From the NCBI GenBank assembly GCA_017934955.1, contig JAGBIO010000005.1, positions 39,642-71,641 on the forward strand: a stretch of DNA of 32,000 bases. Direction: 5' to 3'. Of the stretch, positions 2,848 through 32,000 are shown one piece after another. The position numbers and the translations under genes are program-made. This DNA comes from Clostridia bacterium. Lineage in GTDB: Bacteria > Bacillota > Clostridia > TANB77 > RGIG9151. The number at the start of each line of letters is the position of its first letter. Positions within the stretch are counted from its first letter, which is position 1. Below the pieces are notes generated by a model. It saw only the letters and a program-made list of their open reading frames with translations, ran no database searches and was not told where the DNA came from.

Positions 2848-5274
2848 ATGTACAAATTTACCGAAAAAGCGGAAAAAGTGATAAAGCTATCGAAAGATGC
2901 GGCGGTTGCTTTGGGGCATAATTATGTGGGTACGGAGCATATTTTGTTGGCTTTGATGGAAGAGGGTAATGGTGTTGCTTGTAAGGTTTTGACTTTACAG
3001 GGACTTACAAAGGAGAATATAGCGGATAAAATTGAAGAGTTGATTGGACATGGCGTGGAAGAGGATGTGAAGATGCTTGGATTTACACCTCGTTCGAAGC
3101 GTGTGTTGGAAATTGCGTTTCATGAGGCACGTGGAAACGGGCAGGAGTTTATCGGAACGGAACATATTTTGTTGGCGATTATGAGGGAAAAAGACAGTAT
3201 TGCGGTGCGTGTTTTGGCGGATATGGGCGTTAATATGCAGTCGCTTTACGATGAAATATACAGAAGAGTATCGATTGAGTCGAAAAAGGCGGATTTGGAG
3301 CCGATTAAGAGAAATACGCGGAGCAATTTGACACCGACGTTGAATCAGTTTGGTCGGGACTTGACAGAACTTGCTGAGTTGGGAAAGATTGATCCGGTGA
3401 TTGGCAGAAGCGATGAAATTGAGCGTGTCATTCAGGTATTAAGTCGAAGAACGAAGAACAATCCTTGTTTGATTGGAGAGCCGGGTGTTGGAAAGACAGC
3501 GATTGCGGAAGGTTTAGCGCAAAAGATTGTGCAGGGAGATATTCCGGAGATTTTGAAGGATAAAAGAATTGTGACGTTGGATTTGTCTTCGGTGGTTGCG
3601 GGTGCGAAGTACCGAGGTGAGTTTGAAGAGCGAATCAAAAAGGCGTTAAATGAAGTCATAAAAGCCGGAAATGTTATTTTGTTTATTGATGAGTTGCATA
3701 CGATTGTGGGCGCAGGCGCTGCGGAAGGTGCGATTGATGCAGCGAATATTTTAAAACCGCTTTTGGCACGAGGCGAAATTCAGTTGGTTGGTGCGACGAC
3801 GTTGGATGAATATAAAAAGTATATTGAAAAGGATTCTGCGTTGGAGCGAAGATTTCAGCCGATTCAGGTGGATGAGCCGACTGAGGAGGATGCGATTCAG
3901 ATTTTAAGAGGGCTTCGGGATCGTTATGAGGCGCATCATAAGGTGAAGATTACCGATGAGGCAATTTTGTCGGCGGTGAAGTTGTCGAAGCGATATATTA
4001 GTGATCGTTGCTTGCCGGATAAGGCGATTGATTTGATGGATGAGGCGGCGTCGAAATTGCGTTTGTTGAGTTTTACCGAGCCGGCGAATATTAAAGAGAT
4101 TGAGGAAAAAATAAAGCGTTTCTCGGAGGAAAAAGAAGAAGCGATTAAGGTGCAGGATTTTGAGAGGGCGGCGGAAGTTCGAGATAAGGAACTGAAGCTG
4201 AAGACGCGTCTCGAGAATGCAAAGAAGGATTGGCAGAAGAAGAGTAAATTGACTGAGTCGGTTGTGGGAGAAGAACAGATTGCAGAGATTGTTTCGAAGT
4301 GGACGGGAATTCCTGTGACAAGGCTTGCGGAAGAGGAGACCGAGCGTTTAAAGAACATGGAGGAAACCTTGAAGAAACGAGTTGTCGGGCAGGATGAAGC
4401 GGTTATTTCGGTGTCTAAGGCGATTAAGAGAAGTCGTGTGGGGATTCAGGATCCTAAGCGTCCGATTGGTTCCTTTTTGTTCTTAGGACCGACGGGGGTT
4501 GGAAAAACCGAGTTGAGTAAGGCTTTGGCGGAAGTTTTGTTTGGCGATGAGAATGCGATGATTCGAATCGATATGTCGGAGTATATGGAGAAACATACCG
4601 TTTCTCGTTTGGTTGGTTCACCTCCGGGATATGTTGGTTACGAAGAGGGCGGTCAGCTTACCGATAAGATTCGTAGAAAGCCGTATTCGGTGTTGCTGTT
4701 TGACGAGATTGAAAAGGCGCATGAGGATGTGTTTAACATTCTTTTGCAGATTTTAGAGGATGGAAGATTGACCGATTCGCAGGGGAGAACGGTAAATTTC
4801 AATAATACGATTATTATTATGACGTCAAATGTGGGCGCTCGAACGATTTCGGATGGAAAGAAGTTGGGATTTGAGAAGGGCGAGAAGAAGGAAGAGAGTT
4901 ATCGGGATATTAAGAAAAACGTGATGGATGAGTTAAAGAGGACTTTCCGTCCGGAGTTTTTAAATCGTATTGATGATATTATTGTGTTCCATCAGTTGAA
5001 TGAAGATAATATTCGCAAAATTGTGGATATTATGGTGACGGAATTGGTAAAGCGTTTAGAAACGAAGGAAATCTTTATTGAAGTGGGAGATGACGTTCGA
5101 AACTTTATTGCGAAGAAGGGTTTTGATATTACCTACGGTGCAAGACCGCTACGAAGGGCGATTCAGAATGAGATTGAGGATATTGTGGCAGAGGGAATTT
5201 TGAATCGGGATATCAAGACCGGAAGGAAGGTTCGGTTGAAGGTTGTTGAGGATAAAGTGAAAGTAGAGAATTAA
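2848..5274 (+). CDS. clpC: ClpC-type AAA+ ATPase (Clp_N repeats, two AAA modules, UVR-like middle motif)
   Basis: N-terminal double Clp_N (GHNYVGTEHILLAL, EFIGTEHILLAI). Walker A GEPGVGKT and GPTGVGKT. UVR-like QDFERAAEVRDKE. 808 aa. Confidence 0.9.
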   Translation: MYKFTEKAEKVIKLSKDAAVALGHNYVGTEHILLALMEEGNGVACKVLTLQGLTKENIADKIEELIGHGVEEDVKMLGFTPRSKRVLEIAFHEARGNGQEFIGTEHILLAIMREKDSIAVRVLADMGVNMQSLYDEIYRRVSIESKKADLEPIKRNTRSNLTPTLNQFGRDLTELAELGKIDPVIGRSDEIERVIQVLSRRTKNNPCLIGEPGVGKTAIAEGLAQKIVQGDIPEILKDKRIVTLDLSSVVAGAKYRGEFEERIKKALNEVIKAGNVILFIDELHTIVGAGAAEGAIDAANILKPLLARGEIQLVGATTLDEYKKYIEKDSALERRFQPIQVDEPTEEDAIQILRGLRDRYEAHHKVKITDEAILSAVKLSKRYISDRCLPDKAIDLMDEAASKLRLLSFTEPANIKEIEEKIKRFSEEKEEAIKVQDFERAAEVRDKELKLKTRLENAKKDWQKKSKLTESVVGEEQIAEIVSKWTGIPVTRLAEEETERLKNMEETLKKRVVGQDEAVISVSKAIKRSRVGIQDPKRPIGSFLFLGPTGVGKTELSKALAEVLFGDENAMIRIDMSEYMEKHTVSRLVGSPPGYVGYEEGGQLTDKIRRKPYSVLLFDEIEKAHEDVFNILLQILEDGRLTDSQGRTVNFNNTIIIMTSNVGARTISDGKKLGFEKGEKKEESYRDIKKNVMDELKRTFRPEFLNRIDDIIVFHQLNEDNIRKIVDIMVTELVKRLETKEIFIEVGDDVRNFIAKKGFDITYGARPLRRAIQNEIEDIVAEGILNRDIKTGRKVRLKVVEDKVKVEN

Positions 5275-5315
5275 ATAAGGATTTTTAGAAGTGGTTCCGA
5301 AACGTTCCCAGTGCA

Positions 5316-5357
5316 AAATAAACGTTGGATATAGTATCCGGCGTTTATTTTTTTTGT
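5316..5357 (+). terminator. Intrinsic terminator of clpC
   Basis: AAATAAACGTTGGATA-TAG-TATCCGGCGTTTATTT forms a 16-bp stem (two G.U pairs) followed by a T8 run. Confidence 0.8.
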
Positions 5358-5392
5358 TGTATAGGAAAAATCAAAGATTTTGCCTATACAAC
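5356..5392. repeat. Unclassified hairpin (GTTGTATAGG-N17-CCTATACAAC). Its 3' flank ATTTTGCCTA..CAA recurs at 5463-5485.
   Basis: Perfect 10-bp inverted repeat plus a partial direct repeat, both read directly. Confidence 0.5.
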
Positions 5393-5490
5393 AAAAAACG
5401 CTCCGCGAGGAAGCACACTCGCACGAAAGGAAAGTTGCTCCGCAACTCGTGCTCAGCGCAGGTATTTTGCCTACGCAAAACATTTTTTGT

Positions 5491-5519
5491 TTGACAATTT
5501 TTGTAAAATGATATAAGAT
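5491..5519 (+). promoter_or_regulatory. Candidate sigma-A promoter with no obvious cognate CDS (TTGACA, then TATAAG/TAAGAT after 15-17 nt)
   Basis: Perfect -35 hexamer at 5491-5496. The -10 is AT-rich and imperfect. Confidence 0.3.
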
Positions 5520-5671
5520 AGAGTAAGTTGAAGCAATGGAATAATGAGAGAGTTAAATAGGTGGAAATAGATATTTTAGAGAACTATTACAACGAATTAG
5601 AGATATCCGGAAGTTGAAAATTCAGAATTGGAAAAAGTAGTTTATGACAATATCGTTTAAAATCAATTTTC

Positions 5672-5698
5672 AAAAGCAATTTAATAGATTTGCTTTTT
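5672..5698 (+). terminator. Small intrinsic terminator-like hairpin (AAAAGCAA-N10-TTGCTTTTT)
   Basis: 8-bp stem followed by a T-run, about 180 nt downstream of the orphan promoter. No ORF of 60 aa or more lies between them. Confidence 0.4.
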
Positions 5699-5789: not shown

Positions 5790-6491
5790 ATGCAAGAAAA
5801 TGACTTAATTATATATAAAAATAGTGATGGCAATATTATAGTAGATGCAATATACAAAGATGAAACATTGTGGTTAACACAAAAAGGTATGTCAAAAGTT
5901 TTTGATTGTTCTATAGATAATATTTCCTTACATTTAAAAAATATTTTTAAAGATAATGAACTAAATGAAAATTCAGTTGTCGAGGATTCCTCGGTAACTG
6001 CTTCTGATGGAAAAAACTATAAGACGAAAATATATAATTTGGATGCTATAATTGCAGTTGGATACAGAGTTAATTCTAAAAAAGCAACTGAATTTAGAAT
6101 TTGGGCAACAAAAGTGTTAAAAGAATATATGACTAAAGGATTTGCTTTAAATGATGAACGTTTCATTAAAGGTAATAAATATGATGCAAAATATTTTGAT
6201 GAATTGCTTGAAAGAATTAAAACTATTCGTGTTAGTGAAAGAATGGCATATCAAAAAATTACAGATTTATTTATCGCAACATCAACCGACTATAGTCCTA
6301 AATCAGAAGAAGCATATACATTCTTTAAAATAGTACAAAATAAATTGCATTATGCTATTTCCGGACATACTGCAGCTGAACTTATATATAATAGAGTGAA
6401 TTCAGAAAAAGAACATATGGGGCTTACAAATTGGAAAAATTCTCCCGATGATTTAATATATAAATATGATGTAGTAGTTGCTAAAAATTAA
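5790..6491 (+). CDS. RhuM-family protein, C-terminally truncated (about two thirds of the usual length)
   Basis: RBS AAAGGAG. NLDAIIAVGYRVNSKKATEFRIWATKVLKEY and HYAISGHTAAELIY match my recollection of the RhuM family. The ORF stops right after VVVAKN, where family members continue with AKNYL and about 100 more residues. Very AT-rich DNA. Confidence 0.65.
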   Translation: MQENDLIIYKNSDGNIIVDAIYKDETLWLTQKGMSKVFDCSIDNISLHLKNIFKDNELNENSVVEDSSVTASDGKNYKTKIYNLDAIIAVGYRVNSKKATEFRIWATKVLKEYMTKGFALNDERFIKGNKYDAKYFDELLERIKTIRVSERMAYQKITDLFIATSTDYSPKSEEAYTFFKIVQNKLHYAISGHTAAELIYNRVNSEKEHMGLTNWKNSPDDLIYKYDVVVAKN

Positions 6492-9670: not shown

Positions 9671-9713
9671 GCGAAAAGGCACAAAGTAAATTTTGTATTA
9701 AGGGGCGAGGAAT

Positions 9714-11027
9714 ATGCGTATATTTGATATTATTGCGAAAAAAAGAGATGGCGGGGAATTGACGAAGGAGGAAATTGAATTTTTTATTCAGGGATATACC
9801 GCAGGGGCGATTGAGGATTATCAGGCGTCGGCTTTGGTGATGGCGATTTATATTAACGGAATGTCGAAACGGGAAACGGCGGATTTGACTTTGGCGATGG
9901 CGCATTCGGGTGATATGGCGGATTTGTCGGGTATTAATGGGGTAAAAGTGGATAAACACAGTACCGGTGGTGTCGGAGATAAGACGACGATGGTTGTGGC
10001 GCCTCTTGTAGCAAGTTTTGGAGTTCCGGTGGCGAAGATGTCGGGACGTGGACTTGGTCATACCGGCGGGACAATCGATAAGTTAGAATCGATTCGCGGA
10101 TTTCAGACGGCTATGCCGATTGAGAAGTTTATTGAAAATGTGAATACGATTCATATTGCGGTAGTAGGACAAACCGGGGATTTGGCACCGGCGGATAAGA
10201 AGTTGTATGCACTTCGTGACGTAACAGCTACCATTAGCTCGATTCCTTTAATTGCAAGCAGTATTATGAGTAAGAAAATCGCCGGAGGGGCGGATGCGAT
10301 TGTATTAGACGTGAAGTTTGGCGATGGTGCTTTTATGAAGACTTTAGAGGATGCGAAAACGTTGGCTAAGGCAATGGTAGATATCGGCGAAATGGTAGGC
10401 AGAAAGACGGTTGCTGTGATTTCGAACATGAATGAACCTCTTGGATTGGCGATTGGAAATGCGTTAGAGGTGGAGGAAGCGGTGGCGACGTTAAAGGGAA
10501 ACGGACCGAGAGATTTTGAAACGGTTTGTGTGGAATTAGCGGCACAGATGCTTTGCTTGGCGGGAAAAGGAAGTACAGATACGTTAAAGGAAGAGTTACA
10601 TACAAGGCTACAAAACGGTGTTGCGTTTGAAAAGTTTAAGGAGTTTGTGGCTGCGCAAGGCGGAGATGTTTCGGTGATTGAAAATTTGGATTTGTTACCG
10701 TCTGCCGAGTCGGTTGAGCCGATTTATGCGAAGAAATCCGGCTATATTAACAAGATTGAGGCGGAAAAATTAGGAATTGCTTCTATGTTGCTTGGAGGCG
10801 GCAGGGCGAAGAAAACCGATTTGATTGATTATGGTGTGGGAATTATTCTCAATAAAAAAGTTGCGGATTTTGTAAATGTTGGAGACAAAATTGCCGATTT
10901 ATATGTAAATGACAGAAGTAAATTGGCGGACGCTGTAAGTTTGATCGATGAGGCTTTTTCTTATCAAGAGGAGCGTTTAGAGGAAGAAACGTTAATTGCG
11001 GGAATTATTAGGGGAGACGAAAATTAG
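9714..11027 (+). CDS. pdp: Pyrimidine-nucleoside (thymidine) phosphorylase
   Basis: DKHSTGGVGDK and SGRGLGHTGGTIDKLE motifs. 437 aa. Confidence 0.9.
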   Translation: MRIFDIIAKKRDGGELTKEEIEFFIQGYTAGAIEDYQASALVMAIYINGMSKRETADLTLAMAHSGDMADLSGINGVKVDKHSTGGVGDKTTMVVAPLVASFGVPVAKMSGRGLGHTGGTIDKLESIRGFQTAMPIEKFIENVNTIHIAVVGQTGDLAPADKKLYALRDVTATISSIPLIASSIMSKKIAGGADAIVLDVKFGDGAFMKTLEDAKTLAKAMVDIGEMVGRKTVAVISNMNEPLGLAIGNALEVEEAVATLKGNGPRDFETVCVELAAQMLCLAGKGSTDTLKEELHTRLQNGVAFEKFKEFVAAQGGDVSVIENLDLLPSAESVEPIYAKKSGYINKIEAEKLGIASMLLGGGRAKKTDLIDYGVGIILNKKVADFVNVGDKIADLYVNDRSKLADAVSLIDEAFSYQEERLEEETLIAGIIRGDEN

Positions 11028-21696: not shown

Positions 21697-21963
21697 ATGC
21701 CGGAGTTGTGTAGATTTTACAATATAATTATAAAAATGTTATTTTCGGATAATATTAAACATAATAAACCACATATCCATGTATTTTATAATGAATATGA
21801 GGCGTCAATTGGTTTGGATGGTGAGTTACTGGCAGGAAGCATTCCCGTAGCTCAATTAAAACTTGTTCAAGCGTGGATTGTTTTGCATGAAGAGGAATTA
21901 TATTCTGCATGGAATAATGCTGTTAGAAATATACCGTTTAATAAAATAGAGCCATTAAGATAA
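21697..21963 (+). CDS. DUF4160-like small protein
   Basis: The pattern F..I.I.M...D...H..PH.HV.Y.EYEA.I......L.G.....Q..LV..W...H..EL...W matches my recollection of DUF4160. GGGAGG RBS. AT-rich islet. Confidence 0.6.
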   Translation: MPELCRFYNIIIKMLFSDNIKHNKPHIHVFYNEYEASIGLDGELLAGSIPVAQLKLVQAWIVLHEEELYSAWNNAVRNIPFNKIEPLR

Positions 21964-21975
21964 GGAGGGAATTCG

Positions 21976-22275
21976 ATGTATATCGTTGATGGAATTGCTT
22001 ATGCCGGAGAGCAAACACCGGAAATTAAAGTAAAGTCAGTAAGAGCGTTATCAGATTATAAGCTTTGGGTTAGATTTAGCGATAATTCCCAAAAAATATT
22101 TGATTTTAAGAATCTTTTGGAATTTCCTTGTTATCAGCCATTAAAAGATAATGATTTATTTAATAGTGTATATGTAGATTTTGGAATTGTTGTTTGGAAT
22201 AATGGAGAAATAGATGTTTCTCCTGAAAAGCTCTATGCAGAAGGTGTTCCGGTAGAGGATGAACTTACTGCTTAG
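21976..22275 (+). CDS. DUF2442-like small protein
   Basis: V.SV.ALSDYKLWVRFSDN..K.FDFK.LL....YQPL.D..LF..V.VD.G.VVWNNGE.D.SPE.LY matches my recollection of DUF2442. AGGAGGG RBS 12 nt after the upstream stop codon. Confidence 0.6.
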   Translation: MYIVDGIAYAGEQTPEIKVKSVRALSDYKLWVRFSDNSQKIFDFKNLLEFPCYQPLKDNDLFNSVYVDFGIVVWNNGEIDVSPEKLYAEGVPVEDELTA

Positions 22276-31529: not shown

Positions 31530-31877
31530 ATGGTTTTTACTCTTATGATTCGGTACATAATGGATCATTTTTTATTTCTGATCGGGTATATGGGAAGTAT
31601 CGGTGGGACGTTTCCGAAGCCGCTTTCGGCGAAAGAGGAGGAGATGTATTTTAAGCTCTACAAAGAGGGGGACGAGGATGCGAAGAATGTACTGATTGAG
31701 CGGAATTTGCGATTGGTGGTGCATGTAGCGAAGAAGTATGCGGCGCAGTGGAGTGATAGTGACGACTTGATTTCGATTGGGGCAATCGGGTTGATGAAGG
31801 CGGTTTCTACTTATGATTATGAAAAAGGACATCGGTTTGCGACGTATGCGGCTAAGTGTGTTCAAAATGCTATCCTC
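31530..31877 (+). CDS. sigK: Sporulation sigma factor SigK-like, 5' segment only (pro-sequence plus regions 1.2-2.4). The ORF then runs out of homology and stops at 31998-32000.
   Basis: FLIGYMGSIGGTFPKPLSAKEEE.Y, LIERNLRLVVHVAKKY, DDLISIGAIGLMKAV and ATYAAKCVQNAIL are collinear with pro-sigma-K as I recall it. After codon 116 the sequence (SQMRLWFRINPLRAEKHQNG..) has no sigma region 3/4 character. Confidence 0.7.
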
Positions 31878-32000
31878 TCGCAGATGCGTTTATGGTTCCG
31901 AATCAATCCCCTCAGAGCAGAAAAGCACCAAAATGGCGTATTCTGGCACAGGTTTCCGAGAATATTTACATACTCTGCTCCACTTCGGAGGGCTATGTGA

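Follow-up and report, generated by a model that had tools for sequence, protein, structure and literature searches.

A sigK gene very probably interrupted at its Asn113 codon by a sigK-specific, skin-like mobile element in a Clostridia bacterium

The window, which is the whole stretch of 32,000 nucleotides analysed here, ends in an open reading frame (ORF) that begins like the sigma factor gene sigK and stops after 156 codons, which raises the question of what lies in the place of the remaining gene. A split sigK is the textbook example of a developmentally programmed DNA rearrangement, and a study of C. difficile from 2016 described the skin element as “an exception in clostridia” (PMC5025042). 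The ORF (31530-32000, forward strand) closes with a TGA at the last base of the window. Its residues 5-120 align to positions 4-118 of the 227 positions of TIGR02846 (E 8.6e-44) and NF004471 matches its N-terminal half (E 1.7e-43), whereby the scores for both models reach about half of the full-length cutoff; Pfam reports Sigma70_r2 and nothing else. These results agree with an earlier note on this DNA, which had described SigK homology up to region 2.4, absence of regions 3 and 4, and a stop at 156 amino acids. The sigK 5' segment itself occupies 31530-31867 (forward strand), comprising codons 1-112 and the first two bases of the Asn113 codon, and encodes regions 1.2-2.4. It starts with an extension of approximately 27 residues ahead of FPKPLS that resembles a pro-sequence, and its product shows 92.5% identity over 120 amino acids to P0003, an intact SigK of 236 amino acids. 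The rest of the window is ordinary chromosome with genes for an HtrA-like protease, a Clp ATPase, an RNase J-like protein, flagellin, and pyruvate kinase, as well as hrcA-grpE-dnaK-dnaJ and flaG-fliD-fliS. Amid these housekeeping genes, a RhuM-family gene (5790-6491) and a DUF4160/DUF2442 gene pair (approximately 21697-22275) were observed, which may be small mobile or toxin-antitoxin-like insertions.

In order to find out whether sigK simply continues beyond the window, we used an ENA metagenome scaffold (L001, 72,475 bp) that is identical to the window and runs 581 bp past its end. Six-frame translation revealed sigma regions 3-4 in no frame of the window or of the 581 additional bases, and a tblastn search of the C-terminal half of P0003 against both yielded a best hit at E 0.19, which is a generic resemblance between helix-turn-helix (HTH) proteins. 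A frameshifted continuation of sigK, which the earlier note had named as an alternative, was rejected on these grounds. As in a skin element, foreign DNA thus lies within the sigK coding sequence while the 5' segment is intact.

A protein database search with the 156-amino-acid product led to the identification of 1778 relatives. Among the best 120 N-terminal half matches, 116 carry the same tail, NAILSQMRLWF...PLRRAM, and are truncated at 132-156 amino acids. The SigK parts that bear this tail have a median identity of approximately 59% to that of the window over region 2, and they comprise 82 long alleles with a pro-sequence and 34 short ones without. The occurrence of a common tail on divergent SigK parts shows that it is not decayed sigK but a conserved foreign sequence joined at one point. 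DNA comparison of the loci places this point at 31866-31867, the AA of the Asn113 codon AAT, and not near 31878 (about codon 116), where the break had been put before; residues 114-116 (AIL, compared to EIL in SigK) look SigK-like because the attachment site of the element mimics its target. As the window stems from a metagenome assembly (source sample ENA ERZ28655052 / SAMN15830104) and its contig ends 581 bp later, the split might be an artefact in a continuous sigK, caused by chimeric assembly, a frameshift, or erroneous sequencing. We give this next to no credence, since regions 3-4 are missing from every downstream frame and more than 100 other sigK alleles, as well as isolate genomes, show the junction at the same base. 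Moreover, the junction constitutes a recombinase half-site, the inverted repeat of which is found at the far end of the element.

The element sequence begins at 31868 with TGCTATCCTCTCGCAGATGCG..., and a comparison of 23 distinct left ends showed hardly any variation at positions 1-24 past the junction. The first 133 bp of the element (31868-32000, forward strand) are coding in the +1 frame relative to sigK, where they represent the N-terminal part of an HTH_3 regulator ORF (10327-10959 of L001). Reading away from sigK, this ORF is already open at the first base of the element and continues past the window; an ATG at 31892-31894 within it is invariant. The tail of the chimeric ORF, AILSQMRLWF...RRAM (31869-32000, forward strand), is this HTH gene read out of frame and does not belong to SigK; the TGA at its end shares bases with a GTG (ATGTGA), and the sigK-frame tail is interrupted by stop codons in L096 and L113. 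Over positions 25-135 of the 23 left ends, the entropy per codon position amounts to 4.96/5.81/17.69 in the +1 frame, with 11/11/28 variable sites. Thus, the conservation of the tail is accounted for by coding in the +1 frame together with the attachment half-site. A structured RNA or group II intron was considered as well and rejected, as Rfam yielded nothing at E<=1 in this region and the predicted fold was unremarkable (z-score -0.08). The module at the left end also occurs outside sigK: in two IMG/VR contigs (L013 and L014, at approximately 9980-10650) it is found with 97% identity over 607 bp directly after a phage terminase large-subunit gene, with its own TTGCAA-18-TATAAT promoter and a stand-alone HTH ORF of 221 amino acids.

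On the opposite strand, the earlier note had pointed to an open frame over 31893-32000 with a stop near 31890, and had suggested that an element gene could end there, right at the junction. Frame translation confirmed that the frame is open (31890-32000, reverse strand), which could be taken in favor of a prophage-type skin element with a minus-strand gene, for the recombinase or another protein, that terminates at the junction. However, the ORF has 39 amino acids on L001 and is not a gene, whereas the coding constraint lies on the plus strand. A recombinase gene on the minus strand at the junction was therefore rejected.

Where, then, are the recombinase and the second half of sigK? A search with the C-terminal half of P0003 yielded many ORFs that consist of a SigK C-half preceded by a short foreign extension, e.g., ...GVRIAN/EILMYLRS (the slash marking the junction). 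Directly upstream of the C-half and on the same strand, there is a gene for a large serine recombinase (LSR) of 553-609 amino acids with the architecture Resolvase, Recombinase, and Zn_ribbon_recom, the last codons of which overlap the junction. This arrangement was found in every relative in which the right end could be read (L012, L015-L018, L020, L079, L084, L090, L094, and L106). The IMG/VR relatives of the LSR (58-72% identity) all end in the same right-end motif and are all fused to a sigK C-half but one, L019, which abuts RIANEFRM.... In this locus (approximately 5080-5130) the LSR is 59% identical and the right end GAGAATAGCGAATGA is followed by RIANEFRMQFRKE..., which is unlike a typical sigK C-half; this LSR may have a different target gene. 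Relatives of the LSR in known phages and plasmids do not exceed 46% identity.

Complete copies with both junctions are present in L079, L084, L090, L094, and L106 and measure 4148-7144 bp from core to core. Their gene order is attL, HTH_3 gene (plus strand), a gene for a 74-amino-acid protein (minus), AAA_14/DUF4143 ATPase gene, optional cargo, tnpV (minus), LSR gene (plus), and attR, and in all five the 3' half of sigK lies at the far end of the element. The TnpV proteins of the relatives match PF14198 (E 2e-40 to 5e-41), and their genes are divergent from that of the LSR. The ATPase of the 4-7 kb copies corresponds to the PADLOC candidate defence family PDC-S01 (E 4.5e-115). When the two sigK halves of the five complete copies were joined in silico at the AA, SigK proteins of 211-229 amino acids resulted, with NF004471 scores of 289.8-308.9 compared to a cutoff of 252. 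The skin-like split proposed in the earlier note was thus borne out in the relatives, where an LSR gene and the 3' half are found 4.1-7.1 kb away; the prophage-like nature that it had assigned to the element was not.

Both junctions of the relatives share a 2-bp AA core. The right-end consensus of the relatives is GAG[GA]ATAGC[AG]AA[TC]GA, and right ends of the L012 type read ...GAGGATAGCA-AA-TGA.... In the window, TGCTATCCTC in the element-derived half of attL (31868-31890, forward strand) is the exact inverted repeat of the far-end sequence GAGGATAGCA, from which we infer that attP is the palindrome GAGGATAGCA-AA-TGCTATCCTC, with the AA crossover dinucleotide (31866-31867) at its center. In L084 and L094, the hosts of which have AAC as Asn codon, the base that follows AA segregates with the right half-site, which fixes the exchange at the AA. 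For the genome of the window, attB would accordingly read GTGTTCAAAATGAGATTTTG and attP GAGGATAGCAAATGCTATCCTC; the predicted attR is ...GGGGTGAGGATAGCAAA joined to TGAGATTTTGATGTA..., and the 3' sigK segment would be expected behind an LSR gene and ...GAGGATAGCAAA.

The LSR type that matches the left end of the window is that of L012 and L090. A second element at the same sigK codon was observed in L009-L011, the closest relatives of the window, where the N-terminal SigK halves (P0002 and P0091) are 90% identical to its own. It has the tail NAMVTS..., the right end GTGAATATTGCA-AA-TGAG, and an LSR of 553 amino acids with 42% identity to the L090-type LSR, so that two recombinase lineages target one AA dinucleotide. 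Pairing of the left end in the window with the recombinase of L009-L011 was rejected since the right end GTGAATATTGCAAATG is not an inverted repeat of TGCTATCCTC. In the protein database, a C-half approximately 90% identical to that of P0003 or closer was represented by P0121 alone, which is 98% identical to P0003 and carries the other element type. Furthermore, L015 harbors a second, unrelated LSR gene (4103-5683, reverse strand) with a primase/helicase/YqaJ module directly downstream of the sigK 3' half; the sigK neighborhood may be a hotspot for mobile elements.

In order to deduce what type of element interrupts sigK in the window, we analyzed the relatives with larger copies. From the left end onward, the element in L003 carries a gene for an NB-ARC/TPR STAND NTPase of 768 amino acids, which had no match in PADLOC, cargo enzymes, a MazE-like gene, and a glycosyltransferase gene, and further on a ParM-like ALP_N gene, RepA_N, and an IstB/DnaC-like ATPase gene. 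L114 overlaps this backbone with 92.9% identity over 4.7 kb and then carries genes for DUF3847, a MobA/MobL relaxase, an HTH protein, an anti-sigma/ECF sigma pair, TnpV, and the LSR. Together, the gene contents of L003 and L114 suggest an element of about 17 kb, and we infer that the copy in the genome of the window is a variant of this size, although its gene content is a guess given that the family is mosaic. Such a variant would consist of the HTH regulator, the 74-amino-acid protein, the STAND NTPase, cargo, the ParM-like protein, RepA_N, and the DnaC-like protein, followed by the MobA/L relaxase, the ECF sigma/anti-sigma pair, TnpV, and the LSR. MobA_MobL was found in the large variant L114 but not in the 4-7 kb copies.

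Phage structural or packaging genes were found neither in the approximately 17 kb backbone of L003 and L114 nor in the complete 4-7 kb copies, and the terminase gene in L013 lies outside the element end. The presence of TnpV, relaxase, RepA_N, and a ParM-like protein in the absence of phage structural genes speaks for a mobilizable element of the Tn4451/Tn6104 type rather than for the prophage that had been suggested earlier. Judged by the gene content of its relatives, the integrative element is probably mobilizable. A phage connection might still be read from the distant kin of the LSR in Clostridium and Terrisporobacter phages (36-39% identity) and from the left-end module next to a terminase gene in two IMG/VR contigs. 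Nevertheless, a prophage-type element is very improbable, as the approximately 17 kb backbone is devoid of capsid, tail, and portal genes and the LSR gene is situated at the far end of the element and not on the minus strand at the junction.

The host range of the family was assessed by a genome scan with one genome per species and a probe built from both junction peptides. In the probe alignment (A3), rows 3 and 5 end in a few padded residues, which are not data and did not serve as patterns. The left end was present in 34 loci, 33 times directly behind ...C[IV]xN of sigK and once in an attP-type join. Hosts include the isolates Holdemania sp. Marseille-P2844 (Erysipelotrichia) and Mediterraneibacter agrestimuris DSM 111629, members of Schaedlerella, Eisenbergiella, and Butyricicoccus, and many metagenome-assembled genomes (MAGs) of Lachnospiraceae and Oscillospiraceae from the gut of goat, sheep, deer, rabbit, mouse, and human. 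The 714 bp of the element on L001 are 100% identical to L003-L008 and 99.86% identical to L081 (Holdemania sp. Marseille-P2844). The SigK of the host of L003-L008 is 58% identical to that of the window over region 2, and its upstream neighbors are cotJABC; the cotJC call upstream of sigK in these loci (approximately 9700-9867) has just 55 amino acids with a weak Mn_catalase match and may be truncated or miscalled. Near-total identity in such different hosts indicates a very recent horizontal spread. These identical copies speak for a mobile element that is actively spreading and against a domesticated developmental switch. In the complete 4-7 kb copies, the HTH ORFs are truncated or frameshifted whereas the genes for LSR and TnpV have remained intact, so that selection may have acted to preserve excision. 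This pattern would also fit small copies that have been domesticated as pure excision switches.

Overall, these data make it very probable that 31530-31867 is the 5' part of sigK and that from the AA of Asn113 onward the window enters attL of a mobile element specific for this sigK codon, which has an LSR at its far end and is skin-like in function. In the proposed mechanism, members of the family would insert at the Asn113 codon by means of the LSR encoded at their opposite end, directly upstream of the 3' half of sigK, whereby the palindromic attP would mimic the sigK target. Recombination at the AA core would release the element and restore sigK; before excision, a truncated protein without regions 3-4 would be all that the cell can make. 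The matching attR, LSR, and 3' half in the genome of the window are predicted from the relatives. It might also be that the insertion is a dead end, with sigK serving as a safe harbor after sporulation, the 3' half, or the recombinase was lost, and the 5' part being a pseudogene. No 3' half or LSR gene is present in the 581 bp beyond the window, the promoter of the LSR gene is sigma-A-like and not sporulation-specific, the identical copies in distant hosts indicate a recent invasion, and one host genus, Holdemania, is described as non-sporulating. On the other hand, the 5' ORF is intact and 92.5% identical to its intact relative, both halves are intact and rejoin in frame in five of five fully sequenced relatives, and the decayed mini-elements have retained LSR and TnpV, suggesting selection for excision. 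We therefore regard a dead end as unlikely and favor an excisable, skin-like element.

So how might excision be controlled? By pattern match, the LSR gene is closely preceded by a conserved sigma-A-like promoter (TTTACT-17-TGtTATAAT, extended -10), and a divergent promoter-like site faces tnpV. With a sigma-A-like LSR promoter, mother-cell specificity would need another factor or read-through from the sigK promoter. A recombination directionality factor (RDF), CD1234-like or other, was not identified in the element family, and TnpV and the 74-amino-acid protein are candidates for this function. No sigma-70-like promoter was detected in the stretch from the junction to the HTH gene, so that in the integrated state the HTH gene may be read from the sigK promoter.

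The LSR search yielded, besides proteins of approximately 609 amino acids, five clusters of 803-815 amino acids that combine the LSR domains with HTH_3. Junctions of the attP form, in which the right end is joined to the left end, are present in L113-L116 and L105, and in all five attP-spanning gene calls the LSR ORF crosses attP in frame into an HTH protein of approximately 200 amino acids. The linkers at attP are of two types with 37-42% identity, both in frame, and type B has no internal Met codons. The integrated LSR has approximately 609 amino acids and obtains its TGA stop from the Asn-Glu codons AAT GAR of the host. Where the host Asn codon is AAC, this TGA is missing and the LSR reads into the sigK 3' region in another frame, as in L084 and L094, for which readthrough calls of 634-967 amino acids were obtained (P0241, 967; P0257, 890). 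The ends of the attP-form contigs do not overlap; these contigs thus do not prove circles and could be tandem arrays or paths of the assembler. Joins of the attP type were also observed inside long chromosomal contigs, namely at 11811 of L114 (a 401-kb contig) and in L105 (a MAG of Ca. Scybalosoma faecavium), which could reflect a tandem accretion of two elements or a path of the assembler through circular forms.

As the attachment site lies inside coding sequence, the recombinase would change its form with the integration state. It is conceivable from these gene structures, if rather doubtful, that this constitutes an isoform switch, in which attP would encode an LSR-HTH fusion of 803-815 amino acids, the integrated element an LSR of approximately 609 amino acids, and the HTH ORF would remain headless behind the sigK promoter. 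In line with such a switch are the frame kept by all five attP-spanning calls across two divergent linker types, the lack of internal Met codons in type B, the third-position variation of the linker in the fusion frame, and the missing sigma-70-like promoter ahead of the HTH gene. Against it speak the invariant ATG at codon 9 of the type A linker, the stand-alone 221-amino-acid HTH version with its own promoter beside the phage terminase gene in L013, and the mini-elements that keep the LSR without an HTH ORF. If true, the switch could set directionality or immunity without, or besides, a classical RDF, and could tie HTH expression to sigK transcription in the mother cell.

The results have practical implications, since gene callers and surveys of sporulation genes in MAGs will score carriers as having a truncated or missing sigK and assemblies break at the element. 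The timing of excision could be followed in two cultured carriers, M. agrestimuris DSM 111629, which has a complete copy of 4.9 kb, and Holdemania sp. Marseille-P2844, the left end of which is 99.86% identical to that of the window. One recombinase family at one sigK codon is found in many gut Lachnospiraceae and Oscillospiraceae and in one Erysipelotrichaceae isolate, and this strict specificity together with the host breadth exceeds the routine skin case. The transposon-like rather than phage-like make-up, with the possible isoform switch across attP, exceeds it as well.

[quoted passage not shown] A survey catalogued skin elements in 15 species, with sizes of 2.6-48 kb and a recombinase gene adjoining spoIIIC (bioRxiv 10.1101/2022.02.25.481979). 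In C. difficile, the recombinase gene CD1231, which adjoins the 3' part of sigK, has a sigma-A promoter. Its product is made constitutively, and specificity for the mother cell is conferred by an RDF that depends on sigma-E (PMC5025042). This element, skinCd (LSR CD1231, RDF CD1234), resembles the present family in that it interrupts sigK and has a recombinase promoter of the sigma-A type (PMC5025042), but it is a prophage-like element of 14.6 kb with 19 genes in a host SigK without pro-sequence, whereas the present family carries HTH, TnpV, relaxase, and RepA_N genes and targets both SigK with and without a pro-sequence. In the skin of B. subtilis (SpoIVCA, Skr), sigK is likewise split into spoIVCB and spoIIIC near region 2.4/ENEILM and rejoined by an LSR (PMC6957869), and the host SigK has a pro-sequence, as does that of the window. 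However, it is a defective prophage of 48 kb with a sigma-E-dependent spoIVCA and an overlapping RDF gene, skr, whereas members of the present family have 4-20 kb, are not phage-like, and possess a sigma-A-like LSR promoter.

The small, non-prophage members of the family resemble gin in gerE of Bacillus cereus and the small skins of at least 2.6 kb, which contain little beyond a serine recombinase gene (PMC5595907; bioRxiv 10.1101/2022.02.25.481979). These belong to another family with another target and recombinase lineage, and the present family extends beyond them by large, apparently transfer-competent versions. It also occurs in Erysipelotrichia, a class that is not among the carriers of a split sigK in the catalogue (bioRxiv 10.1101/2022.02.25.481979). 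The nearest documented analogues in gene content are integrative mobilizable elements of the Tn4451/Tn6104 type (PMC3158075). Elements of the Tn4451/Tn4453/Tn6104 type share with the relatives described here an LSR with a 2-bp crossover, an adjacent TnpV, and a MobA/MobL relaxase, and the sigma factor gene of Tn6105 has a counterpart in the large variants (PMC3158075). According to the title of the Tn4451 paper cited there, TnpX alone suffices for transposition (cited in PMC3158075). The present LSR matches the N-terminal domain of TnpX weakly (E 1e-7). TnpX elements differ in having several insertion sites, a GA core, and catP or other cargo, whereas the present family uses an AA core and essentially a single sigK codon (33 of 34 loci).
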